The position numbers were made by a program, and so were the translations under genes. Positions 1 through 12,239 of a stretch of DNA of 12,239 bases are shown here, piece after piece. Under the pieces are notes generated by a model. That model searched no databases. It had not been told where the DNA came from and saw only the letters and a list, made by a program, of their open reading frames with translations. The stretch is from a virus (taxonomy: Duplodnaviria; Heunggongvirae; Uroviricota; Caudoviricetes): IMG/VR virus record IMGVR_UViG_2671180458_000003; one strand, written 5' to 3'. Position 1 is the first letter of the stretch. Each line of letters opens with the position of its first letter.

Positions 1-2
1 AA

Positions 3-248
3 ATGAAAACCATCTTTATCAAACCCGAGCCGGGACGCCTGATTCGTGATCCCGACACAATGCGCCCGCTGGCACAGGAGGGAGAGAAAAAGCCCTTCAC
101 GCCGTTCTGGTGTCGGCGTCTTGATGACGGCGATGTCATTCAGGCTGAAAAAGCCGCTGAAGAGGCTCCGGCTGTATCTGCGGATGCAACGACTGCGACA
201 GAAAAACCGGTCGCCCAACCGGCATCCGATAAGGAGAAACCGCAATGA
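3..248 (+). CDS. hypothetical protein immediately upstream of the tail sheath gene (possibly 5'-partial)
   Basis: 81-aa ORF whose TGA stop overlaps the sheath ATG (ATGA at 245-248), suggesting translational coupling. Ala/Thr/Pro-rich low-complexity C-terminus. The window begins 2 nt before its first ATG, so the true start may lie upstream. Confidence 0.4.
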   Translation: MKTIFIKPEPGRLIRDPDTMRPLAQEGEKKPFTPFWCRRLDDGDVIQAEKAAEEAPAVSADATTATEKPVAQPASDKEKPQ

Positions 249-1747
249 TTAATTTTGACGGGATCGGTAATGACCGCCGTATACCGCTGATTGAGGTTGA
301 GTTTAATAACTCCATGGCTGTCACCGGCACTCCGGCACAGCGTCAGTGTGTGCTGCTGTTTGGTCAGGCGAGAATGAAAGAGAATGCCGTGGACGGTGCC
401 GGTGTTCTGGATGTTCCGGTCAGGATCACCCGTGCGTCTCAGGCAACAGAACTCTGGGGGCGCGGCTCCATGATTGCCCTGATGGTGGCGGAATTTATCG
501 CCATCAATCCTGATGCTGAACTGTATGCCATTGCTCAGGGGAATGGCACCGGACAGGCGTTATCCGCCGCCATGAATCTGACCGGAACGGTCACCCGTGA
601 CGGAATTGTTTATGCCTGCGTGGGGGGGCGGCGTTATACACTCCCGGCACCAAAAGGTAAGAAAGGCAAAGAACTGACCGACGAGCTGGCCGCGCTGATC
701 AATGCCGATCCTGACGCGCCCTTCACGGCCTCCTCTGGTGCAGGAAGTGGTGATAATGGCGCAGGTCTGAAAGGGTCTCTGGGGATCACCGCCCGCTTTA
801 CCGGTGAATGCTCCGTTCATGATGTGCGCCTGAACTATCACGACGGGGAAGCAACCCCGGAAGGAATACAGGTCGCTATAGCCTATCCGAAACAAAAAGC
901 GGCTAACCCGGATATCACCCGAAGCGTGGCGGGTATGGGCGATCGCCAGTACAACTATGTCGTCATGCCCTATAAGGATGATGCAAACCTGAAAATCATC
1001 AGTGATGAGCTTCTGAAACGCTGGGGACCGGCCAAAATGTCTGACGGCGTGCTGTGGCTGGCACATACCGGCACGTTTGGTGAGGTGCAGGCATTCGGGG
1101 CAAAACGCAATGATTTTCTGGCGACCTGCACATCCATTCCCAAAGCCCCTGAACCGGATTACCTCTGGGCCGCGGCGGTCTGCGCCACCTGTGCACCCTC
1201 TCTGGGAGCAGATCCTGCGCGTCCGCTTCAGACGCTGGCGCTTCCGTCACGCATGGCCCCGGCTCCGGCCGATCGTCTGACGCGTGAAGAGCGTAACAGT
1301 CTGTTGTGGGGAGGGATTGCCACGGTCAGTGTGGCTGCCGGTGATGTGCTTCAGATCGAACGTCAGGTGACCATGTATCGCCAGAACGTGTACGGCGAAA
1401 GTGATCCCAGCTATCTGGATGTGGAAACCATCTACACCCTCTCCTGGCTGCGTTATTCCCTGCGTACTTTTATCACACAACGTTTTCCGCGCCATAAACT
1501 GGCTGATGACGGGACGCCCGTTCGTGCCGGTCAGAATATCGTGACACCGGAGATCATGAAGCTTCAGTTAATTTCGCTGGGTGAAGAGTGGGTGGAACTC
1601 GGGCTGGTCGAAAATCTGGACACTTTTAAAAAGAATCTGCTTGTGGAGCGTAATGCGTCAGATCGAAACCGCCTTGACGTGTTATGCACGCCGGATCTGG
1701 TTAACCAGTTCCGCTTCCTGGCAGCACAGATCCGTTTCATTTTGTGA
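245..1747 (+). CDS. phage contractile tail sheath protein (Mu gpL-like)
   Basis: 500-aa ORF with a strong SD (AAGGAG at 235-240) before the ATG. It is followed 8 bp later by a ~120-aa ORF, the canonical sheath-tube pair, and sits first in a Mu-like tail gene order. Call is by size and synteny, not by a recognised motif. Confidence 0.65.
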   Translation: MINFDGIGNDRRIPLIEVEFNNSMAVTGTPAQRQCVLLFGQARMKENAVDGAGVLDVPVRITRASQATELWGRGSMIALMVAEFIAINPDAELYAIAQGNGTGQALSAAMNLTGTVTRDGIVYACVGGRRYTLPAPKGKKGKELTDELAALINADPDAPFTASSGAGSGDNGAGLKGSLGITARFTGECSVHDVRLNYHDGEATPEGIQVAIAYPKQKAANPDITRSVAGMGDRQYNYVVMPYKDDANLKIISDELLKRWGPAKMSDGVLWLAHTGTFGEVQAFGAKRNDFLATCTSIPKAPEPDYLWAAAVCATCAPSLGADPARPLQTLALPSRMAPAPADRLTREERNSLLWGGIATVSVAAGDVLQIERQVTMYRQNVYGESDPSYLDVETIYTLSWLRYSLRTFITQRFPRHKLADDGTPVRAGQNIVTPEIMKLQLISLGEEWVELGLVENLDTFKKNLLVERNASDRNRLDVLCTPDLVNQFRFLAAQIRFIL

Positions 1748-1755
1748 GGTAAGGC

Positions 1756-2121
1756 ATGAGCGGAAAACAGTATCAGGGCACGGCCACTATCCGTGTGAAC
1801 GGTCAGGAATACGAGACGCTTGAGGGGGCTACATTTTCTCCGTCAGGTTTTGAACGTGAAGTGGTGAAAGGCGCGAAAGTCTATGGTTACCGCCAGAAAC
1901 CACGTGAAGCGACGCTGGACTGCAAATTTCCGGCAGGCGGAGAAGGCTCACCAGCCGCTGATGAAATCAACAACTGGACTGCGGTCACCATCGAGTTTGT
2001 GGCGGATACCGGCGAAGTCCACATGATGACGAAGGCCTGGAGCAGTGAACCGGCCTCGCTTGACGGTGGCGGGGAGATCTCCGCGAAGTTCGCCAGTGCC
2101 ACCAGTACCCGTGTCCAGTAA
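1756..2121 (+). CDS. phage tail tube protein (Mu gpM-like)
   Basis: 121-aa ORF directly after the sheath gene and 14 bp before the chaperone gene; size and position are typical of a contractile-tail tube protein. Confidence 0.6.
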   Translation: MSGKQYQGTATIRVNGQEYETLEGATFSPSGFEREVVKGAKVYGYRQKPREATLDCKFPAGGEGSPAADEINNWTAVTIEFVADTGEVHMMTKAWSSEPASLDGGGEISAKFASATSTRVQ

Positions 2122-2135
2122 TCAGGAAAAATGCA

Positions 2136-2612
2136 ATGACCACACGAAAGAAAAAAAACGCGGTTTCTGACGAAGCCGTTATTGAGGCTATCCGTGATGC
2201 ACTTGAGGACGGCGATCCACGCACCGCCGGTCTGGCAGAACAACTGGCGAAAGGCTATGTGGATCTGCTTGATGGTCTGCCATTCGGTGAGTCCCGTGAA
2301 TACCGCGTCACCTTCCGCGAACTGACGGCGAAAGACAGCATTGATGCGGAAACCGATGCTGAACGTCTTATGGAAACCCGAAACGGCCCGGTTCTGGTGG
2401 CATCACCGGCCCTGCGCGGTATTGCGCTGCTGCGTCGCCAGATTGCCGCTGTCGGTGACATTCAGGGGCCGTTGTCACAACGCCAGATTGGGCAGTTAAG
2501 CGAGCGCGATCTCTCCCGTCTGATGGCAGCGGTCAGCCTGCTGGATACCGCGCTTGCCGGAAAGCTGGCGGCTGATCGGGGGCGAGCAGGCGCAGTGTCG
2601 GGCGCAGATTGA
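2136..2612 (+). CDS. tail assembly chaperone (Mu gp41-like position)
   Basis: 158-aa acidic ORF between the tube and tape measure genes. Its 3' end overlaps an alternative-frame ORF that runs to just before the tape measure start, the lambda G/GT-like arrangement. Confidence 0.55.
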   Translation: MTTRKKKNAVSDEAVIEAIRDALEDGDPRTAGLAEQLAKGYVDLLDGLPFGESREYRVTFRELTAKDSIDAETDAERLMETRNGPVLVASPALRGIALLRRQIAAVGDIQGPLSQRQIGQLSERDLSRLMAAVSLLDTALAGKLAADRGRAGAVSGAD

Positions 2613-2736
2613 AGAAGCGGCAATAGTGCTGGGGATGGTGACCAGAAGCGGCCCGGAATGGGCGCTTAACCTCCCCTTATCGCAACTTTACCGGCACTGC
2701 CAACAAACGGAAAAAATTCTCAGAACGAAGAAGTAA
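2524..2736 (+). CDS. putative frameshift-extension reading frame of the tail chaperone
   Basis: The frame one nucleotide downstream of the chaperone frame is open from 2524 to a TAA at 2734-2736, 3 nt before the tape measure ATG (2740) and in the same frame as it. The six-frame track reports it only from a TTG at 2554. Candidate shift sites are GGG-GGC-GA (2578-2585) and the terminal GAT-TGA (2607-2612). Confidence 0.35.
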   Translation, partial: WQRSACWIPRLPESWRLIGGEQAQCRAQIEEAAIVLGMVTRSGPEWALNLPLSQLYRHCQQTEKILRTKK

Positions 2737-2739
2737 TCC

Positions 2740-4794
2740 ATGGCAAAAAACCTGAAAGCCTCCCTGATTGTCGATTTACTCGGCAATGTTTCCGCCAAAT
2801 CCCGCCAGTGGTCACAGGAGCTGGGGGCGTTCTCCCGCGTCGGCAGGACGGGGCTGGGTGGTATTGGAAATGCAGCCCGCCGTGCCGGTCAGGAGACAGA
2901 GCTTGTCGGCTCCCGTATGCAGCGTACGCTTGCCGGTGTCCGTGGCAGTATCCGCACGGTAACGTCGGATTTTGACCGTCTTCAGGGCAGTATTACCGGC
3001 ACGCTGGGACGTCTCAGCAACCTTTACGGGATGCTGGCAGGAGGGGCTGCGGTCTACGGTTTTAATAAAGCCTTTATCCGCCCGGCCGCAGAGATGGAGA
3101 ACTATATTCTGCGTCTCAATGCCATTAATCATGGCGATACGGCAAAAACGGAAGCAGTGAAAGCCTGGGCGGTACAGAACGCAAAGGAAACCACCTGGGG
3201 ACTGGCGGGGGTTATGCAGGAATACGCCTCCAGTCGCGGGTTCGGTATGAGTGACAGGGAAGCCCGCCGCTTTATTACCATGCTTCAGGATCAGGGCGGC
3301 TATCACGGCTGGTCACTGTCAGATGCACAGGGGGCGTCCCTGCAACTCAAACAGATGTTTGCCCGCCAGAGTATCCAGGCCGCGGACGCCAGTATCCTGA
3401 CCGGATACGGGATAAACGTTTACCAGTTGCTGGCCGATAAACTGGGTGTAAACCAGAAGACCATCCGTGAGAAAGGCGAGAAAGGAAAACTGGGACCGGA
3501 CAGCATTCGGCTGTTATTTCAGGTGATGGCCGAACAGGCAAAAGGTGCCCAGAAAAACGCCATGAACTCATGGACAGGGATGACATCCATGATGGGCGAC
3601 GTCTGGGACGGATTTGCCCGTGAAGTAATGGCAAAAGGGCCATTTGACAGCCTGAAAAAGAGCCTGAAAGGCTTCCTGGATTATGCCGATGCGGCACAGA
3701 AAAGCGGCTTACAGGACAAGCTGGCCACACAAACAGCCTCAGCCCTGAATCAGGGCTTTGAGTATGCCAGAGACGCAGCGACGGGTTTTTACCGGGCCAT
3801 TCAGAAAGTCAGGGAAACGCTTCAGGCATTGCGTGACGCTGGTTATGGCGATGCGCTGGATCGCATTGGTCAGGGCGCACAGACCGCCGCGAAATATCTC
3901 CTGTATATGTATCTCGCCACCCGTGCGCTGAAGGCTGTCCGCGCCATAGGTCTTGGGGCACTGCGACCGGGGGCGGCATTGTTGGGGTACGGGTTATCCA
4001 CGGCCGCTGTGCTGACCTCGCCTTTTCGTAAACCGCAGACCACCGTTCCGGGCACGCAGCCAGGACGCGGCCAGCGTTTTATGAACTTTCTTACCGGGGT
4101 AAATCCTGCTGCCGTTCAGCCCGTACTGGTCACCAACTGGCCTGCGGGTGGTCTGGCATCTGGTGGCGGGGATGTGGTGGTCAGCGGTGACGGCAAAACC
4201 GTGCGCAGCCGTAAAAAACGCGGCCCCGGACGTGGGCGGGGTGTCACGACCGTTGTGACTGCCGGTGAGCAACTGGCAGAGAGCGCCGGTAAACAGGGCT
4301 TCTTCGGTCGTATGATGAGCCGTGCCGGTGGTCTGCTTTCGGCTGCCGGAAGCCGCATGGGGTTGGGGCGTTTTGCCGGGCTTTTCCGTGGTGCCGGTCG
4401 GCTGGGCGGTGGTGCCCTGTGGGCCGGGGCCATGGCGGCTCCTGTACTGCTGGACAGCAGTGCCAGTGCCGTTGATAAAGCCGGTGCCGTGGGTTCCCTT
4501 GCCGGAAGTATCGCCGGTGGTGCGCTGGGGGCTGCCGCCGGTCCGGTCGGGGTTGCCATTGGCTCCACGGTGGGCAGTTATCTCGGTGATTATCTGGGGG
4601 GATGGCTGACCGAAGCCTGGCAGAAATTACGGGGCAGTGATGAAAATGGCGGACAGGCCACCGCGAAAACCGCCGCACGGGTGGAGCTTGTGGCCCCTGA
4701 AGGCTGGCGGGCACGCAGTATTGATGTGGATGATACCGCACAGCATGGTCTTGATGTGAACGTCTGGAACGGAGGGAACTATGGCCTCTACTGA
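2740..4794 (+). CDS. tail tape measure protein
   Basis: 684-aa ORF, the longest in the operon, directly after the chaperone pair. Ala/Gln/Lys-rich N-terminal two thirds and a Gly/Ala-rich hydrophobic C-terminal third (GGALWAGAMAAPVLL, GSLAGSIAGGALGAAAGPVGVAIGS), typical of tape measure proteins. Confidence 0.8.
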   Translation: MAKNLKASLIVDLLGNVSAKSRQWSQELGAFSRVGRTGLGGIGNAARRAGQETELVGSRMQRTLAGVRGSIRTVTSDFDRLQGSITGTLGRLSNLYGMLAGGAAVYGFNKAFIRPAAEMENYILRLNAINHGDTAKTEAVKAWAVQNAKETTWGLAGVMQEYASSRGFGMSDREARRFITMLQDQGGYHGWSLSDAQGASLQLKQMFARQSIQAADASILTGYGINVYQLLADKLGVNQKTIREKGEKGKLGPDSIRLLFQVMAEQAKGAQKNAMNSWTGMTSMMGDVWDGFAREVMAKGPFDSLKKSLKGFLDYADAAQKSGLQDKLATQTASALNQGFEYARDAATGFYRAIQKVRETLQALRDAGYGDALDRIGQGAQTAAKYLLYMYLATRALKAVRAIGLGALRPGAALLGYGLSTAAVLTSPFRKPQTTVPGTQPGRGQRFMNFLTGVNPAAVQPVLVTNWPAGGLASGGGDVVVSGDGKTVRSRKKRGPGRGRGVTTVVTAGEQLAESAGKQGFFGRMMSRAGGLLSAAGSRMGLGRFAGLFRGAGRLGGGALWAGAMAAPVLLDSSASAVDKAGAVGSLAGSIAGGALGAAAGPVGVAIGSTVGSYLGDYLGGWLTEAWQKLRGSDENGGQATAKTAARVELVAPEGWRARSIDVDDTAQHGLDVNVWNGGNYGLY

Positions 4795-6139
4795 CACGCC
4801 GGGGCGTGGCTCCTTCCGTGGTGTGCCGTTCCTGGTTTATCAGGAGCAGCGGGAACGGGGCGGACGTAACATTGTGCGCCGTGAATATCCGCTGCGTGAA
4901 AGCGGCGGTGCGGATGATTTGGGGCCAAAACTCCCGGAGTTTACATTCACGGCTCTTGTGATCGGCAATGACCTTCAGACGCAGCGAAGCCGCCTGCGGG
5001 ATGCGCTGCGGGCACCCGGTGCCGGTGAACTGATGCACCCGGATTACGGCACCTTAAATGTGCTGATAAACAGCTTTGAAAGCCGTTATAACGCCAGCGA
5101 ACAGGGAACGGTTGAGTTCACGATCAACGTGATCCCCGCCAGTGACGATACCGCACCGGCGGTGGCTGAAGACACGGCTGCCGTTCTGGAGCAGAAAAGC
5201 GGTTCAGCAATGAATCAGTTGTTTAACACGCTTTCAGACGGCTGGACAGTGATTTCAGACGGCCTGCATGATGTGCAGGCCATGACCGACACCATCAGCG
5301 ATAAAATTGATGCGCTGGAGAATGCCGTTTCGGGTATGGGGATTGTGCAGGATATCAGTGCCTTTACGGCCAGTTTCACTGCCCTGAAAGGGAATGCTGC
5401 CGCCCTGATTAATTCGCCCCGTCGCATGGCTGAATCTCTGGCCGGAATGTTTGCGGTGCTGACGGGACTGCCCGGCGATCCTTCCCTGTCACTGACCGGG
5501 AAGGCCGCAACGCCGTCCGGCAGCCTGACCACAAACCGTGACAGCATGACAGAGCAGGCAATGCCGCAACTGTACCGCACACTTTCTTCCCTGCGTTATA
5601 CCCTCAGCGGGCAGGATGATCCGCAGATCCTGATTGGTCTGACGCCTGCGGCACAGAAAAATATCAGTCTTCTGCGGACAGTCATGCAGAGCGCAACCCT
5701 GGTGTCACAGGCGCAGACGGTAGGAAAACTGCTGGATCAGGTCGTCCGGCAGAGTGCGACGCTCGTTCAGGATACTGACCGGGAGGGCGGACTGGCCTGG
5801 CTGGAAAGTTCTGCCGATGTGCAGCGGATCAACCGGGATTTGAGTGATGCCCTGGAACAACAGGTGCTGGATTTGTCCGCACAGGGCCATACCGGAACCG
5901 CCCTTGCATTACGTGATGCCAGACTTGCGCTGACAGAGGATTTAACAACGCGTAGCGTGCATCTTCCCGGCGCTTCTCAGGTCATGGTGCGAACCACCGA
6001 ACCGGCACTGGTCACGCTGTACCGTGCCACCGGCAACAGCCGTCGCTGGCAGTATTTTGTCCGCAGGAACAACATCCCTGATCCGGTTTTTGTTCCTGGT
6101 GGTCGCAGTGTGGAGGTGATCAGTGAGCAGCATGATTGA
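4781..6139 (+). CDS. Mu gpN-like DNA circulation protein (baseplate/tail-tip protein)
   Basis: 452-aa ORF overlapping the tape measure stop by 14 nt, with GGAGGG SD at 4771-4776. The N-terminus (SFRGVPFLV...) resembles the DNA-circulation N-terminal domain as I remember it. Position matches Mu gene N. Confidence 0.65.
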   Translation: MASTDTPGRGSFRGVPFLVYQEQRERGGRNIVRREYPLRESGGADDLGPKLPEFTFTALVIGNDLQTQRSRLRDALRAPGAGELMHPDYGTLNVLINSFESRYNASEQGTVEFTINVIPASDDTAPAVAEDTAAVLEQKSGSAMNQLFNTLSDGWTVISDGLHDVQAMTDTISDKIDALENAVSGMGIVQDISAFTASFTALKGNAAALINSPRRMAESLAGMFAVLTGLPGDPSLSLTGKAATPSGSLTTNRDSMTEQAMPQLYRTLSSLRYTLSGQDDPQILIGLTPAAQKNISLLRTVMQSATLVSQAQTVGKLLDQVVRQSATLVQDTDREGGLAWLESSADVQRINRDLSDALEQQVLDLSAQGHTGTALALRDARLALTEDLTTRSVHLPGASQVMVRTTEPALVTLYRATGNSRRWQYFVRRNNIPDPVFVPGGRSVEVISEQHD

Positions 6140-7247
6140 GCTGTATATTGGCGGCAGTATTTTTTCCGGCTGGCTGACGGTCAGTGTTCGTCGCTCGCTG
6201 GAGCATCTGGCCGGGTCGTTTGAACTGGGGCTGATGCTGCCCGGTGAGCGCATCCCCTCAGCCCTGCGGGCCGGTCAGTCCCTGACGCTCAGAATTAACG
6301 GGCAGACGGTCATCAGTGGCTGGCTGGATCAGGTCAGTCAGCGGATCAGTGCAACCCGTCATCAGATCAGCATCAGCGGTCGGGATAAAACCGGCGACCT
6401 GGTGGACTGTGCCGCCATCCATCCCGGCAGCCAGTGGCGAAACCGGACGCTGGCACAGATTGCCGCAGATTTATGTGCGCCCTTCGGAATAGCCGTGCGC
6501 TGGCAGGTTAACGACGACACGACTGCACGCCCCTTCAGCTCTTTTACCCTGGAAAACTCAGAAACCGTGGCGGATGCGCTGACCCGTGCGGCCCGGCATC
6601 GTGGGGTGCTGGTGACCAGTAATGCTGACGGCGATCTGGTGTTCACTCAGGCAGGAAATCAGCAGACGGACAGACTGGTGCTGGGGGAAAACCTGCTTGA
6701 TGCCGATTACAACATGGACTGGCGAGGACGATACAGCGAATACCGTGTCCGGGGGCATGGACGCGGTGGGGGTAAACGGGGAGACAGCGAATCCGCCGCC
6801 CGGCTGGCGGCCCCAGTGGGCATCATCAGTGATGAGCAGATCGGTCGCTACCGGCCGAAAATCATCCTCGCCGATCAACAGACAGACACCTCCGGTGCAC
6901 GGCAGCGCGCCCTGCGGGAGATGCGCCGTGCGGTTGCCCGTTCAGAACGGTTTTCCGCCACCGTGCGTGGCTGGTTCCGGGATGATGGCCGGTTATGGGA
7001 TGTCAATCTGCTGACCGGTGTTTCGGCCCTGCGTTTCGGTATCGAACAGACTGAACTTCTGGTCTGCCAGGTGGAGTTTTTACTGGATGAGCAGAACGGG
7101 GAAGTCACCCGGCTGGTACTGGCACCGCGTGACGGCTTTATCGTTCCGGCAGAGCCGGACAGTAAGGGTCGTGGTGGTTCCGGTGATGATGTTGATGCCT
7201 TTATTCGCCAGCAGATGAAAAAACAGGGGATCAGCTTTGATGAATGA
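6123..7247 (+). CDS. baseplate hub protein (Mu gpP / P2 gpD-like)
   Basis: 374-aa ORF; GTG start at 6123 lies 6 nt after GGAGG (6112-6116), with an alternative ATG at 6132. Overlaps the preceding stop. Position and size match Mu gene P. Confidence 0.6.
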   Translation: MSSMIELYIGGSIFSGWLTVSVRRSLEHLAGSFELGLMLPGERIPSALRAGQSLTLRINGQTVISGWLDQVSQRISATRHQISISGRDKTGDLVDCAAIHPGSQWRNRTLAQIAADLCAPFGIAVRWQVNDDTTARPFSSFTLENSETVADALTRAARHRGVLVTSNADGDLVFTQAGNQQTDRLVLGENLLDADYNMDWRGRYSEYRVRGHGRGGGKRGDSESAARLAAPVGIISDEQIGRYRPKIILADQQTDTSGARQRALREMRRAVARSERFSATVRGWFRDDGRLWDVNLLTGVSALRFGIEQTELLVCQVEFLLDEQNGEVTRLVLAPRDGFIVPAEPDSKGRGGSGDDVDAFIRQQMKKQGISFDE

Positions 7248-7851
7248 TGAAGTGTTCAGCCGCCTGATTGCCCCGGTAACGCGCGGCATTCGCCTGCTGT
7301 TTGGCCGCGGCGTTCTGACCGGCACACATGACGAACTGAAAATGCAGAATGTGCAGCTCACCGGCATGGACGGCGAAACCTTTGATGATGTGGAGCGTCC
7401 CCAGCAGTACGGGCAGATCAGCGTTCCCCTGCCGGGTGCGGAAACCTTTTTTGCCTGTCTGGGCGGGCAGCGTGATCAGACCGTGGTGCTTGTGGTGGAA
7501 GACCGCCGCAGTCGCCCGACCGGACTCACTGCCGGAGATACCGGCGTGTATCACCATGAGGGGCACCGCATACGTCTGACAAAGAACGGTCGGATCATTG
7601 TGACCTGTAAGACGCTGGAAATTTACGCCGATGAAGGTGTTCAGGTGGATACACCGGAAGCCACCTTCACGGGCAATGTCACGGTGGATAAAAACCTGCA
7701 TATCAAAGGTAATCTGACCATTGATGGCACAGGAAAATCACAGGGTACGTTCACGATGTCCGAGGCTGTTATTGCCGGGATCACCTATTCCGGCCATGTA
7801 CATCATGACAACGGTGAAGGCAGTAAGACAGGAGCGCCGGAGAATGGCTGA
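7240..7851 (+). CDS. baseplate central spike protein (Mu gp45 / P2 gpV-like)
   Basis: About 203 aa from ATG 7240 (the track starts it at TTG 7237), with AGGGGA SD upstream. Size and position match Mu gp45. The C-terminus carries a His cluster (SGHVHHDNGEG). Confidence 0.65.
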   Translation: MNDEVFSRLIAPVTRGIRLLFGRGVLTGTHDELKMQNVQLTGMDGETFDDVERPQQYGQISVPLPGAETFFACLGGQRDQTVVLVVEDRRSRPTGLTAGDTGVYHHEGHRIRLTKNGRIIVTCKTLEIYADEGVQVDTPEATFTGNVTVDKNLHIKGNLTIDGTGKSQGTFTMSEAVIAGITYSGHVHHDNGEGSKTGAPENG

Positions 7852-8281
7852 TATTGCAATTGTGTGGGATCAGGGATGCGGTTCGCTGCAACTGAACGGT
7901 GCAGACCTGCTGACAGATGACAGTCTGATGACAGCGGTTCTGATTTCACTGTTCACTGACCGCCGGGCACTGACGTCGGATGAAATCCCTGATGGCACAC
8001 GTGACCGCCGGGGATGGTGGGGAGACAGTTTTCGCCCGCGCCCCATTGGCTCCCGTCTGTGGCTTCTCAGTCGGGAAAAAACGCTGGCCTCCGTGATAAG
8101 CCGTGCCCGTGCCTACGCGGATGAGGCGCTGGGCTGGCTCAGTCAGGATGGCGTGGCGTCATCCGTGGTCTGTCATGCAGAACGTGTGGGGCACGCGCGG
8201 CTGGCGCTTTCGGTGCGCATAACCCTGCCTGATGGTTCGGTAAGACCCATGATTTTTTATGCTGATCTTAAGGGGGAGTAA
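7844..8281 (+). CDS. baseplate wedge protein, Mu gp46 / P2 gpW / T4 gp25-like
   Basis: 145-aa ORF from ATG 7844 (AGGAG SD at 7830-7834) overlapping the spike stop by 8 nt. The track ORF 7721-8281 is the same frame with a spurious upstream extension. N-terminus MADIAIVWDQG...LISLFTDRRA resembles the GP46 family as I remember it. Confidence 0.7.
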   Translation: MADIAIVWDQGCGSLQLNGADLLTDDSLMTAVLISLFTDRRALTSDEIPDGTRDRRGWWGDSFRPRPIGSRLWLLSREKTLASVISRARAYADEALGWLSQDGVASSVVCHAERVGHARLALSVRITLPDGSVRPMIFYADLKGE

Positions 8282-9363
8282 TGCCTTATCAGCCTTTACC
8301 GCTGGCACAGTTAATCACGCAGACACAGCAGGATATCAGCCAGCGTCTTCCCGGTTCGCAGCCGGGCGTGAATGAAACCACCCTGAATGCCATTGCGTAT
8401 GCTCAGGCAGGATTGTCTGCACAGGAGCATGAACATCTGGCCTGGATTGCACGTCAGATCATCCCGACAGAAGCCGATGAAGCCGAGTTGCTGAAGCACT
8501 GCGCTTTCTGGGGTGTCATGCGTAAACCTGCCTCACGGGGTGACGGGCCGGTTCAGCTGATGCTGACCACGGATGCGGGGATCACGGAAGGTGTGCTTCT
8601 CCAGCGCAGTGACGGCGTGGTTTACCGCATCACCTCCTCACTGACCGGTAAAGCCGGTACGCTGAATGTCAGTGTGGAGGCCGAAAGTGCCGGTCGTGCG
8701 GGAAATGCCCCGGCAGGGACGAAACTGACGTTTGTCACTCCGCAGGCGGGGATCAACCAGACGGCCACGGTGACCGGAACAGGGATCACCGGTGGTGCGG
8801 ATGTGGAAACGGTGCCGGAGCTGCTTTCCCGCCTGGTTTTCCGGGTGCAGAATCCGCCGTCCGGCGGTACACAGTACGATTTTGAACGCTGGGCGCGTGA
8901 AGTGCCGGGGGTGACGCGGGCATGGTGCCGCCCGGAATGGCCGCAGGCGGGCAGCGTGGGGGTGACGTTCGTTCAGGACAACAACCCGGACATTTTTCCC
9001 GGTGAAGGTGATGTGAAACGTGTGGCGGATTATATCCGCAGTCATGATGATCCGGCGACCGGCCAGCCTGTCGGTCAGCCTCTGGGGCCGACGGTGACCG
9101 TGTTTAAACTGACCAATAAGCCAGTGCCTTTCAGTATCAGGATCATCCCGAAAACACCGGAGAATCAGGCGGCAGTAAAACAGGCACTGACCGACCTGTT
9201 ATACAACGAATCCCGCCCCGGCGGTCTGGTTCTGGCGTCGTCTTTCTGGCGTGCCGTGGCGGGGGTGAAAAATCTGGAGGATTTTGAAGTGCGCAGCCCG
9301 CTGACGTCGGTTCAGGCGGGAGACAGCGAGCTGCTGACAGTGGGGGAAATCACATGGCTGTAA
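8281..9363 (+). CDS. baseplate J-like protein (Mu gp47 / P2 gpJ / T4 gp6-like)
   Basis: 360-aa ORF with a TAATG stop-start overlap and AAGGGGGAG SD. Size and position after the gp46-like gene match the baseplate J family. Confidence 0.7.
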   Translation: MPYQPLPLAQLITQTQQDISQRLPGSQPGVNETTLNAIAYAQAGLSAQEHEHLAWIARQIIPTEADEAELLKHCAFWGVMRKPASRGDGPVQLMLTTDAGITEGVLLQRSDGVVYRITSSLTGKAGTLNVSVEAESAGRAGNAPAGTKLTFVTPQAGINQTATVTGTGITGGADVETVPELLSRLVFRVQNPPSGGTQYDFERWAREVPGVTRAWCRPEWPQAGSVGVTFVQDNNPDIFPGEGDVKRVADYIRSHDDPATGQPVGQPLGPTVTVFKLTNKPVPFSIRIIPKTPENQAAVKQALTDLLYNESRPGGLVLASSFWRAVAGVKNLEDFEVRSPLTSVQAGDSELLTVGEITWL

Positions 9364-9914
9364 CCCTCACTCCGCATCAGCGCGCCCTGTTGCAGTTGCT
9401 GCCTGACGGACTGGCCTGGGACAAGCGGCCGTCATCCGTACTGGCTGCGTTATGCCTTGGCCTCAGCCATTCCACCGAACGTGTTGCATGGACGGGAAAA
9501 CAGCTGCTGGCAGAACGTTTCCCTGACAGTTCCCGTCTGCTTCTGGAAGACTGGGAGCGTTATCTCGGCCTTCCCGAGTGTGATATGGCCGGAGCCACCA
9601 TCACAGAACGACAGCGTTATGCCGGGAATAAATACCGGATGAAGCCTTCGCTGAACCGTGAATTTTATATCAGGTTTGCGGCAGAGTTTGGTTATGAAAT
9701 AGATATTCAGCCATCACCGGATTCACAGTGGGTCAGTATTGTCACGATAAACAGTGAAACCGGCTACCGGAATATGAATGTGCTGGATGATATTCTCACG
9801 CCGCTGCGTATTTATGAGGGTGGTGCGCTGGAATGTATTCTGAACCGTTATAAGCCTGCATGGCAGACGTTTATTTACGTGTATGCAAACAGTCACGAAG
9901 AGGAGAATATTTAA
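9354..9914 (+). CDS. tail/baseplate protein, Mu gp48 / P2 gpI-like (DUF2313, YmfQ-type)
   Basis: 186-aa ORF overlapping the J-like stop. Motifs LLPDGLAW and [10 protein letters not shown] match what I remember of the YmfQ/gp48 family. Lies immediately before the tail fibre gene. Confidence 0.65.
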
Positions 9915-10825
9915 TGTTCCATGTTGATAATAATTCCGGCGTGGCGAATATGCCTGAACTGGCTCCGGCGCAGAGTAATACCACCACCTGGTTTACCGAG
10001 GGGGACGGACAGAAAGGTATCAGCTGGATTGGTCAGGACTGGCTGAATATTCTCCAGGCCGAACTGCTGAATATTCTGGCTGAAGCCAGTATTCAGCCGG
10101 ATAAGGCGCAGTTAAACCAGCTTACGCTGTCCATTAAAGCCATTATCGCTGCGAATGCTTTTTCCCGGAAAAATAACCTGAAAGAAATTGCTGATGCCGG
10201 TGCGGATGCTCAGCGTCTGGCCCGTGGTTATCTTGGTCTGGGGACGCTTGCCACAAAAAACAGTCTTGGTCCCGGTGACGTTAATGCCCTGGCGAAGGTT
10301 CAGAATCTCGCCGACCTGGAGAATAAGGGAACCGCCCGTAATAATCTGGATGTTTACAGCAAGAGCGAAGGTGATAACCGTTACCTGCGCAGGGAGCAGC
10401 ACGGCGCAGACATTCCGAATAAAGGGGCTTTTATCGATAACCTCGGTTTACGGGAAACGGTAAACAGGGCTGCAAATGCCCTGCCATCGAATGGTACAGC
10501 CGTAGCGGCAAACAAGCTGTCTGCGGCACGTAAAATTAATGGTGTTGCGTTCGATGGCACAAAAGACATCACTATTACATCCGGTATGACCCAGGCTACA
10601 GCAGACGGCAGATATGTTCGTAATGTGCAACTTGGTGCTCAGAGCCGCCACTCTCCTGCGGGTAATGAAGTCACCTGGGATTATAAAACACCAGCAGGTT
10701 GTATGCTTTCCGGTATTCATGTACAGGATACCGGCTCCCGGTCTGCGGATAATATCGGTGGGGTCTATTATCGCCCGGTTCAGATTTATATTAATAATGT
10801 CTGGAGAACGGTGAGTTCAGTGTAA
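9914..10825 (+). CDS. tail fibre protein: constant N-terminal part (9914-10443) fused to the currently expressed variable C-terminal cassette (10444-10825)
   Basis: 303 aa from ATG 9914 (AGGAG 8 nt upstream, TAATG overlap with the previous stop); the track ORF 9860 is a spurious upstream extension. The N-terminus [15 protein letters not shown] is of the Mu S / e14 tail-fibre type as I remember it. The gene is interrupted internally by a gix-like crossover site at 10431-10456. Confidence 0.8.
10431..10456. other. gix/pix/hix-like 26-bp invertase crossover site (left)
   Basis: TTATCGATAACCTCGGTTTACGGGAA. Its reverse complement TTCCCGTAAACCGAGGTTATCGATAA closely resembles Mu gixL as I recall it (TTCCTGTAAACCGAGGTTTTGGATAA), with a central GA dinucleotide at 10443-10444. 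Lies inside the tail-fibre ORF at the constant/variable junction. Confidence 0.7.
10441..10560. repeat. left inverted repeat of the invertible segment (pairs with 11590-11709)
   Basis: Hand alignment of the reverse complement of 10441-10560 against 11590-11709 gives 96/120 identities, rising to about 90% or more in the ~50 bp next to the crossover site. Both copies encode nearly identical peptide (NLGLR[E/D][18 protein letters not shown]...INGVAFDGT). Confidence 0.75.
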
Positions 10826-10835
10826 ACCACAGAAA

Positions 10836-10854
10836 AGGGTGCTGAATGCACCCT
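10836..10854. terminator. hairpin between convergent genes (candidate bidirectional intrinsic terminator)
   Basis: AGGGTGC-TGAAT-GCACCCT, a 7-bp perfect stem with 5-nt loop, 10 nt after the fibre stop and 5 nt before the minus-strand assembly-gene stop. T-rich flank on the minus-strand side (TTTCTGTGGT). Confidence 0.4.
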
Positions 10855-10859
10855 CTGAA

Positions 10860-11256
10860 TTATTCCGGTTTTTCCGGCCAGGAAATCGCCTGGTAATGCC
10901 TCTCGCTGGCAATATCATTAAGGTGCATTTCTTTAAGCTGTCGGATATACGCCATCCAGCGCGTCAGCTTTAATTTATTTTCATCGCTAATCATGTCCAG
11001 TTTTAATTCTGTTTTCCAGTCATCCACGGTTCCGTTGGCCTCCTGGAGCAGCGATGAACGGCGATTTTCAGCAACCGTATTCCAGTTTACCGGCACCTTT
11101 GATATCAGGCCATCAGAAAACTGCCAGTTACCGTCAATATTCACACCTTCCGGCAGTTCGTCCACTTCAACAACAGTAAAACCTGCCGGATATAAAGCAG
11201 AGACATCTTCAGCAACAGAGCAGATAATGCCCGTTACAGGCGAAATACAGAGTTTG
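10860..11256 (-). CDS. tail fibre assembly protein (Tfa / Mu U-like), N-terminus lost in the N-gap
   Basis: 132 visible codons ending at stop 10860-10862. Carries Tfa-type motifs (GIICSVAEDVSALYPAGFTVVEV, MISDENKLKLTRWMAYIRQ, C-terminal WPEKPE). The reading frame runs into the N run at 11257. Confidence 0.7.
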
Positions 11257-11410
11257 NNNNNNNNNNNNNNNNNNNNNNNNNNNNNNNNNNNNNNNNNNNN
11301 NNNNNNNNNNNNNNNNNNNNNNNNNNNNNNNNNNNNNNNNNNNNNNNNNNNNNNNNNNNNNNNNNNNNNNNNNNNNNNNNNNNNNNNNNNNNNNNNNNNN
11401 NNNNNNNNNN
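11257..11410. other. run of 154 N (assembly gap or masked sequence)
   Basis: Literal n characters in the sequence. It lies inside the invertible segment and hides the junction between the alternative fibre cassette and the assembly-gene 5' end. Confidence 0.95.
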
Positions 11411-11705
11411 CACCACCACGCATTTCCCAGTCTCCGTCAGTCTTAAAACCGGTAATCACATTTCCTGATGACAGGGAGTAATTATATTCCAGTCCACCGC
11501 TTAATGCCTGCGCTCCCAGTCTTACCCCTGTAACATAACGCTGATTGGCCGTTGATTCCGGCATTCCTGACGTAATGTTTATATCCTGCGTGCCGTCAAA
11601 GGCGACACCATTGATTCTGCGGGCATTTGCCAGCCTGCTTGCTGCAACAGCCGTACCGTTTGATGGCAGGGCATTCGCGGCCCTGTTTACCGTATCCCGT
11701 AAACC
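11411..11705 (-). CDS. promoterless alternative tail-fibre C-terminal cassette (Sv'), 3' end lost in the N-gap
   Basis: Minus-strand frame is open from the right crossover site (codons [24 protein letters not shown]...) through ...QRYVTGVRLGAQALSGGLEYNYSLSSGNVITGFKTDGDWEMRGG into the gap. The first ~38 aa are near-identical to the plus-strand fibre after its crossover site, then the sequence diverges. No start codon or SD of its own at the 5' end; the track's Met at 11564 is internal. Confidence 0.7.
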
Positions 11706-11709
11706 GAGG
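11590..11709. repeat. right inverted repeat of the invertible segment (pairs with 10441-10560)
   Basis: See left repeat: about 80% identity over 120 bp by hand alignment. It gives rise to a mirror-image spurious ORF (11545-11760 +). Confidence 0.75.
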
Positions 11710-11719
11710 TTTCAGGGAT
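11694..11719. other. gix/pix/hix-like 26-bp invertase crossover site (right)
   Basis: ATCCCGTAAACCGAGGTTTCAGGGAT. It shares the inner half-site and core (TCCCGTAAACCGAGGTT) with the left site in inverted orientation; the outer half-site differs. Central GA at 11706-11707. Lies 55 bp upstream of the invertase ATG. Confidence 0.7.
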
Positions 11720-11773
11720 GCCGTATATCTGCTTTAAAAGGCATTTTCACCTCTTTTTAAGGAAGGTAAATAC

Positions 11774-12216
11774 ATGCTTATTGGCTATATACGCGTATCA
11801 ACAAATGATCAGAACACAGGTTACAAAGAAATGCGCTGGAATGTGCAGGATGTGAGCTGATTTTTGAAGATAAAATGAGCGGAAAAACAACGCAGCGGCC
11901 GGGACTGAAGCGGGCACTGAAGAAACTAAAACCCGGTGACACGCTGATGGTCTGGAAACTGGACAGGCTGGGGCGCAGTATGCGCCACCTTGTTGCGCTG
12001 ACAGATGAATTACAGCAACAGGGGATAAATTTTCGTAGTCTTACTGACAACATTGATACGTCAACCCCCATGGGGCGCTTCTTTTTTCACATAATGGGTG
12101 CGCTGGCAGAAATGGAGCGTGAATTGATTGTCGAACGGACACGGGCTGGTCTTGCAGCTGCCCGTGAAAGGGGACGAACCGGCGGCAGACCCCGTCGTCT
12201 CACGCAGGAACAATAG
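11774..12216 (+). pseudogene. Gin/Pin/Cin/Hin-family serine DNA invertase, reading frame disrupted (frameshift near 11817-11821; ORF also ends early at 12216)
   Basis: ATG 11774 with AGGAAGG SD gives MLIGYIRVSTNDQNT, the invertase N-terminus with catalytic Ser at position 9, then runs out of frame to a TGA at 11858-11860. The frame one nucleotide back continues LQRNALECAGCELIFEDKMSGKTTQRPGLKRALK...GRFFFHIMGALAEMERELIVERTRAGLAAARERG, collinear with Gin/Hin as I remember them. That frame stops at 12214-12216 (TAG-TAA), about 40 codons short of a typical invertase and before the C-terminal HTH. Confidence 0.65.
11866..11932. promoter_or_regulatory. putative Fis-dependent recombinational enhancer inside the 5' part of the invertase gene
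   Basis: Two Fis-like 15-mers (G-N13-C with an AT-rich centre): GAAGATAAAATGAGC at 11866-11880 and GAAGAAACTAAAACC at 11918-11932, centres about 52 bp apart. Gin/Hin enhancers are known to lie within the first ~150 bp of the invertase gene. Pattern match only. Confidence 0.25.
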
Positions 12217-12239
12217 TAAGCGTAAACTGACCGCCGTAT

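Follow-up and report, generated by a model that had tools for sequence, protein, structure and literature searches.

A gin-like invertase gene interrupted by an inherited frameshift and an insertion sequence beside the tail-fibre switch of a Mu-like Escherichia coli prophage

In phage Mu, the serine invertase gene gin directly follows an invertible tail-fibre segment, the 3.06-kb G segment, inversion of which swaps the C-terminal part of a 505-aa fibre. The roles of Ser9 and of the helix-turn-helix (HTH) domain in Gin and Hin are well established, as is cross-complementation among Gin, Pin, Cin and Hin. Serine invertases also need an enhancer bound by Fis. The hin enhancer starts about 100 bp from hixL, contains two Fis sites, depends on the helical phasing of these sites and includes an ATTTA tract contacted by the invertase itself (PMC3798978). 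The invertase-specific residues that contact Fis belong to helix 1 of the DNA-binding domain (Gln151, Arg154 and Leu155 in Hin; PMC3798978). The Mu enhancer has been located inside gin (Kahmann et al. 1985, as cited in PMC4513852).

Here we analyzed a 12,239-nt stretch of DNA (hereafter the window) that corresponds to the late-gene end of a Mu-like (Sp18-type) E. coli prophage. Its genes run from tail sheath, tube, tape measure and DNA circularisation protein through baseplate genes and Gp48 to the fibre, an invertible segment and the invertase, an order shared with Mu (AF083977) and with the full prophage of E. coli 89-3156, which also carries Mu transposase, Mor, Com and methyltransferase genes. 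The switch comprises the following features:

9914–10825, plus strand: tail-fibre gene as currently configured (303 aa), with the constant part to 10442 and Sv(+) from 10445 (WP_000469171.1 in 89-3156).
10431–10456, plus strand: gixL-like 26-bp site TTATCGATAACC TC GGTTTACGGGAA, centred at 10443–10444 within the fibre gene.
10439–10560, plus strand: left arm (122 bp) of an inverted repeat, 80% identical to 11590–11711, encoding the junction shared by the fibre variants.
10860–11256, minus strand: tail-fibre assembly gene (Caudo_TAP), part of the silent cassette, its start lying in the N gap (PF02413, E = 3.8e-18 for the 89-3156 copy).
11257–11410, no strand: scaffold gap of 154 N, standing for 317 nt in 89-3156 and in assembly L007.
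11411–11705, minus strand: silent fibre cassette S'v, its end lying within the N gap.
11590–11711, minus strand: right arm of the inverted repeat, from BLAST of the window against L001 and alignment of the arms.
11694–11719, plus strand: gixR-like 26-bp site ATCCCGTAAACC GA GGTTTCAGGGAT, centred at 11706–11707 and aligning with the Mu G-segment boundary.

As in Mu, the invertase gene directly follows the invertible segment; the segment is flanked by two inverted 26-bp sites with 2-bp crossover cores (TC and GA) that have the AAACC-GA-GGTTT core in common with Mu gix. Both gix sites and both fibre cassettes are intact. The gap is not a mask of equal length: the 317 nt that it replaces cover the points at which the assembly gene starts and the silent cassette ends, and with this sequence restored the segment measures 1,428 bp. 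When inversion was simulated with the gap sequence of L007, it swapped the C-terminal part of the fibre as in Mu and yielded an in-frame 298-aa fibre followed by the Caudo_TAP assembly gene. The system is more compact than that of Mu, with a segment of about 1.4 kb rather than 3.06 kb, fibres of about 300 aa rather than 505 aa, and an assembly chaperone for one of the two cassettes, whereas Mu has U and U'. A further difference lies in the invertase gene, which is here a pseudogene with a frameshift at codons 16–17 and an IS truncation at codon 147.

Several side observations concern the segment and its relatives. The expressed cassette Sv(+), which ends at 10825, has no chaperone on its own strand, the Caudo_TAP gene being carried by the silent one, and the fibre tips have similar terminal motifs, of 12 residues in one and VYYRQIQYCING in the other. 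A small ORF over gixR (11545–11760, plus strand), for which PGAP lists a 61-aa hypothetical protein in many genomes, overlaps the silent cassette on the opposite strand and is present in the current orientation only; it is probably not a gene. In the flipped copy of strain JNE141411 (L006, 13914–14801), the 295-aa fibre ORF is intact, and PGAP labels no more than its final 67 codons as "phage tail protein", along with a spurious opposite-strand ORF; inversion seems to confuse the annotation. In Enterobacter-type P2-like prophages (L021–L024, 2400–2956), upstream fibre cassettes are ordered differently between samples, which suggests an active multi-cassette, shufflon-like switch. A promoter and terminator scan of 11560–12239 returned no consensus matches.

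To describe the gene in its undamaged state, we used the intact orthologue WP_000904930.1, a 186-aa protein with a Resolvase domain at residues 3–135 (PF00239, E = 1.4e-51) and an HTH_7 domain at residues 138–181. Its residues 1–182 match crystal structures of Mu Gin (3UJ3 and 4M6F; E = 2e-91), and it shares 76% identity with Mu Gin over 181 aa. Copies of this orthologue reside in Sp18-type Mu-like E. coli prophages, including that of NJS001 and a Mu-like insert in Stx phage LC727881. They are 98–99% identical to the window at the nucleotide level and have the same flanking genes; they differ in carrying GGTTTA and a full 186-aa ORF with HTH_7, where the window has a deletion and an IS. The N-terminal serine nucleophile lies in the context YIRVSTNDQ, compared with YVRVSTNDQ in Gin, and the catalytic domain is recognizable in the window. 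In contrast, an uninterrupted two-domain frame is absent, as a 1-nt deletion leads into TGA 11858, and HTH_7 is missing, with the gene cut short by the IS after codon 147. The Fis-contact region, EQVGRLL in the intact orthologue and EQAGRLL in Gin, lies beyond this cut and is not encoded by the window. The locus descends from the Gin/Hin/Cin/Pin family, yet it is not a functional member of it.

Many database entries for related invertases (P0020, P0037, P0050 and P0120) are 151-aa products that start at an internal MSGKT methionine. We considered whether these several Enterobacteriaceae entries reflect recurrent N-terminal truncation and rejected this idea: because the upstream frame is intact (MQIGYVRVSTNDQNT... 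in frame), they are wrong start calls at the same internal ATG.

The invertase gene of the window is divided as follows:

11774–11860, plus strand: 5' fragment of the invertase pseudogene, identified by translation and by alignment with the intact orthologue and Mu Gin.
11819–11823, plus strand: site of the 1-nt deletion, GGTTA in place of GGTTTA (Gly16-Leu17) in intact orthologues, identified by alignment and by exact-pattern checks at 12 loci.
11821–12215, plus strand (−1 frame): rest of the catalytic domain, corresponding to Leu17–Gln147 in the 186-aa orthologue and followed by the TA that begins the Tyr148 codon.
12216–12239, plus strand: left terminus of an IS66-family, ISEc23-like insertion sequence (GTAAGCGTAAACTGACCGCCGTAT), identified by the point at which orthologues diverge (12216) and by its match to ISEc23.

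Translation from ATG 11774 yields 28 codons, of which MLIGYIRVSTNDQNT is in frame and GYKEMRWNVQDVS out of frame, ending at TGA 11858–11860 (complete product, MLIGYIRVSTNDQNTGYKEMRWNVQDVS). This fragment carries the codon of catalytic Ser9. Codon 15 is ACA (Thr), with its last base at 11818, and only GG (11819–11820) precedes the continuation in the −1 frame, which runs from TTA CAA AGA AAT GCG (LQRNAL...) at 11821 and reads LQRNALECAGCELIFEDK...GGRPRRLTQEQ up to TAG 12214–12216. An internal ATG at 11875 opens the 113-aa ORF that gene callers report. Since the shifted part fits the PF00239 Resolvase family (E = 8e-44), the invertase remnant is real and a chance pair of ORFs can be discounted. 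We aligned the window with 89-3156 and with the intact NJS001 copy (WP_000904930.1, 186 aa). Undamaged genes have ACA GGT TTA CAA (Thr15 Gly16 Leu17 Gln18; ACAGGTTTACAA) at this site, while the window and 89-3156 both read ACAGGTTACAA, one T being gone from the TTT run. An earlier note on this DNA had described the N-terminal part with its catalytic serine, the GG left between codon 15 and LQRNAL, and the stop of the original frame at 11858, and had proposed a 1-nt deletion; our translation agrees on each point, and comparison with intact orthologues places the loss exactly, GGT TTA having become GGTTA at codons 16–17. Its guess that the missing codon was D or A did not hold for this lineage, in which WP_000904930.1-type invertases have Gly at position 16, though Mu Gin does have Asp. 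Our results thus support a Gin/Pin-family serine invertase gene broken by a single-nucleotide deletion.

A second lesion, which had been overlooked, is found at the right end of the window. All orthologues cease to match it at 12215, where the native gene continues ...CAA TAC GAG CAG GTC... for 39 further codons (...CAATACGAGCAGG...) and the window ends ...CAA TAG TAA GCG TAA ACT GAC CGC CGT AT. The TAG at 12214–12216, which is not the native stop codon, combines the TA of the Tyr148 codon with the first G of the insertion sequence; some 39 codons, including the HTH domain, are absent. The IS is inserted after codon 147 (Gln147), and the HTH_7 domain (residues 138–181) is thereby lost. The frameshift described by the earlier note stands, and the gene is doubly disrupted.

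The last 24 nt of the window occur at 9127 places in E. coli genomes. They are the left terminus of ISEc23, immediately upstream of tnpA, tnpB and tnpC (copies including L003 and L004), and the terminal repeat starts with GTAAGCG. While only these first 24 nt of the element are present in the window, they are identical to the ISEc23 terminus, and the tnpA-tnpB-tnpC order after the junction is the same in a contig that extends further (L008). The junction is common to all six Logan/ENA assemblies that carry the deletion allele, exact to the base. Two of the contigs, L008 and L012, run 0.3–1.3 kb past it into IS66 tnpA, tnpB and tnpC, and L008, which carries HTH_Tnp_1, TnpB_IS66 and LZ_Tnp_IS66 genes, shares 96.8% identity with an ISEc23 copy across 1.3 kb. 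The insertion is therefore genuine. Another ISEc23 copy (L003) is bordered by an 8-bp duplication (GCACAATA) at 3507–3514 and 6047–6054, and the 8 bp that precede the IS here (12208–12215, GAACAATA) resemble it, a likeness that is not seen with L004 and that could reflect target preference or coincidence. The event may have been either a simple insertion or one accompanied by a deletion; in the former case, with the 8 bp duplicated, the right end of the IS would be expected to read ...GACGCTTAC, then GAACAATA, then CGAGCAGGTCGG....

We compared 11650–12239 by megablast with 5,426 complete E. coli genomes, 225 of which contained most of the query, and surveyed the deletion site with a 57-nt probe. 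Among the 202 complete RefSeq E. coli genomes in which the gene is present, the deletion allele was found in one (89-3156); every other match listed has the extra base. In 89-3156, the locus is C6P65_RS22265 (NZ_CP027366.1), labelled by PGAP as "recombinase family protein, frameshifted". Among assemblies at large, the allele is not rare. The exact 113-aa ORF starting at ATG 11875 was called in six independent assemblies (Logan SRR18717590, SRR21404545, SRR13816169 and SRR19635874; ENA ERZ27957070 and ERZ28618533), and an exact-pattern check detected the deleted version in six of six and the intact version in none. In a look-up with the exact 303-aa fibre sequence, the matches listed included four NCBI assemblies (L017–L020), among them the complete record AP026761.1, alongside 21 more similar places; all four have the deletion and lack the IS. 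Flanking or synonymous SNPs distinguish some of the deletion-allele copies from the window. Exact-pattern searches of viral contigs, GTDB representative genomes and JGI metagenomes found neither the frameshift allele nor the IS junction. As the same allele occurs in a finished genome and in independent assemblies, the frameshift is an inherited allele. Moreover, the frameshift occurs without the IS (89-3156, L017–L020), whereas an IS without the frameshift was not seen in the assemblies compared, indicating that the frameshift came earlier.

The comparison with 89-3156 also sheds light on the prophages themselves. Positions 8813–11256 and 11411–12215 of the window are 100% identical to 89-3156, deletion included. 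Across 905–11256 overall identity is 98%, which places the divergence upstream of 8813, and 3–539 is only 75% identical. C6P65_RS22265 lacks the IS and keeps the 3' end of the gene, and the upstream tail genes have diverged, which makes it a different mosaic prophage. The window and 89-3156 are therefore separate genomes. At the left end, window 1–905, which covers the DUF2635 gene and the beginning of the sheath gene, is about 75% identical to 22920–23789 of the 89-3156 prophage (L005), while the right 3.4 kb is identical. The two prophages are mosaics with a common fibre and invertase module.

The deletion also falls in a region that, by comparison with hin and Mu, may act in cis. Two conserved blocks surround it:

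11795–11809, plus strand: proximal conserved block GTATCAACAAATGAT, candidate Fis site, its centre about 96 bp from the gixR centre.
11843–11857, plus strand: distal conserved block GTGCAGGATGTGAGC, a candidate for the other Fis site, separated from the proximal block by the spacer that contains the deletion.

When five diverged genes (window-type invertase, Mu gin, P1 cin, pro483 and P88) were compared without gaps, invariant third codon positions clustered in these two blocks, and the same blocks occur in L021–L024. The blocks, which are thus conserved between the window and the 5' coding region of Mu gin, where the enhancer is located, are probably the Fis sites of an enhancer, with exact registers that we take to follow those of the hin sites. 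No inter-block indels were present in the intact homologues examined, and the window is 1 bp shorter. The lost T falls in the counterpart of the hin ATTTA tract. If helical phasing matters, this single deletion might conceivably kill the enzyme in cis and at the same time weaken the response of the segment to invertases acting in trans, an idea that we regard as rather improbable. If true, a natural lineage would have fixed a tighter lock than loss of the enzyme alone could provide. A synonymous C-to-T change at 11809 (GAC to GAT) was considered as a hit on the Fis core and set aside as weak evidence, as P1 cin has A at this position.

The consequences for the enzyme are clear-cut at the level of the product. 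Translation from the native start yields 28 residues, far too short for a catalytic domain, and a functional invertase from this locus is impossible; a product from the internal start lacks Ser9 and, in the lineage of the window, the HTH domain as well. We infer that enzyme activity is lost and that the orientation of the segment would be frozen unless a paralogous invertase acts in trans. A single orientation was observed in all six disrupted assemblies in which it could be read (the window, 89-3156, L007, L009, L010 and L011), while relatives with an intact invertase exhibited both: JNE141411 is flipped, with the assembly gene on the forward strand, as is 2015C-3121, in which S'v is joined to the constant part. 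L017–L020 were left out of these counts, since the 303-aa fibre look-up by which they were found is biased to the current orientation. The disrupted assemblies are probably clonal relatives, and their shared orientation could therefore be plain inheritance.

Three alternatives would undo one or other lesion. The earlier note had held that the missing base could equally be a sequencing error, which would leave the invertase intact. A single base in a short homopolymer, a window drawn from a scaffolded draft with an N gap, and an allele present in just 1 of the 202 complete RefSeq genomes with the gene would all fit such an error. However, the identical allele is found in a finished genome, four other NCBI assemblies and six Logan/ENA assemblies from different read sets, flanking SNPs separate some carriers from the window, and a T3 run is not an error-prone context, which together make this reading highly implausible. 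For the same T3 run, phase variation through the T tract was rejected, the run being too short and the allele stable over many assemblies. Restoration of a full-length invertase by ribosomal frameshifting or transcriptional slippage, for which the needed shift (−1) and the overlap of the frames at 11809–11857 would be suitable, is less probable still: the overlap lacks both a slippery heptamer (X XXY YYZ) and a long homopolymer, the orthologues are plain single ORFs, and in the lineage of the window the HTH domain is lost to the IS anyway. As for the second lesion, the last 24 bases might be a chimeric contig end, given that no more of the IS is included in the window, that the element is multicopy and that 89-3156 and L017–L020 lack the insertion. 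A base-exact junction in six independent assemblies, two of which continue into IS66 tnpA, tnpB and tnpC, makes a chimera very unlikely.

A less remote alternative accepts that the gene is dead in cis but holds that the switch still flips through a paralogous invertase in trans, of the e14 Pin type or from another prophage, such that the fibre is not frozen. Its substrate is available, as both gix sites and both cassettes are intact and the silent cassette is undecayed. 89-3156 has another locus that resembles the invertase gene in nucleotide sequence, and at least one such locus was detected in 3648 of the 5426 complete E. coli genomes; loci of this kind being common in E. coli, trans-acting invertases are likely to be available. 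Position 1 of contig L008 (SRR21404545) corresponds to window 11695, which is the first base common to both orientations (11694 is A now and would be T if flipped), and a start at precisely this predicted fork would fit an assembly graph from a population of mixed orientation. Against this, a single contig-start coincidence is slender, and the similar contig L012 starts at window 11689, likewise close to the inner edge of gixR but off the fork. Furthermore, all six readable disrupted assemblies agree in orientation, L007 is unbroken across both gix sites, and the deletion shortens the spacer of the conserved enhancer blocks, which might weaken trans-driven inversion. Taken together, continued flipping in trans seems a minority prospect, though a serious one.

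We therefore favor, with a probability of roughly 85%, the reading that the gin-like invertase gene of this Mu-like E. coli prophage was inactivated twice, that both lesions are inherited and that the segment is stuck unless helped in trans. Loss of one T from the TTT run at codons 16–17 came first and ends translation after 28 residues. In the sub-lineage of the window, an ISEc23-like element then inserted after codon 147 and removed the gix-binding helix-turn-helix. The segment of about 1.4 kb is thus left without a flipping enzyme of its own, and the orientation producing the 303-aa fibre would be kept unless a Gin/Pin/Cin-type paralogue intervenes. Such decay is ordinary for a prophage, and pseudogenes of this kind are known, RefSeq already flagging the IS-free form; only the possible double effect of the deletion on enzyme and enhancer offers a mildly novel angle.

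Unless another invertase helps, the prophage of this lineage can show just one of its two tail-fibre tips, which would narrow the host range of its particles. In this respect, it would be a natural counterpart of laboratory Mu gin mutants. The locus also offers a clean case of stepwise decay, a frameshift followed by a later IS insertion, in which the frameshift sits within a coding region that probably doubles as a cis-acting enhancer.
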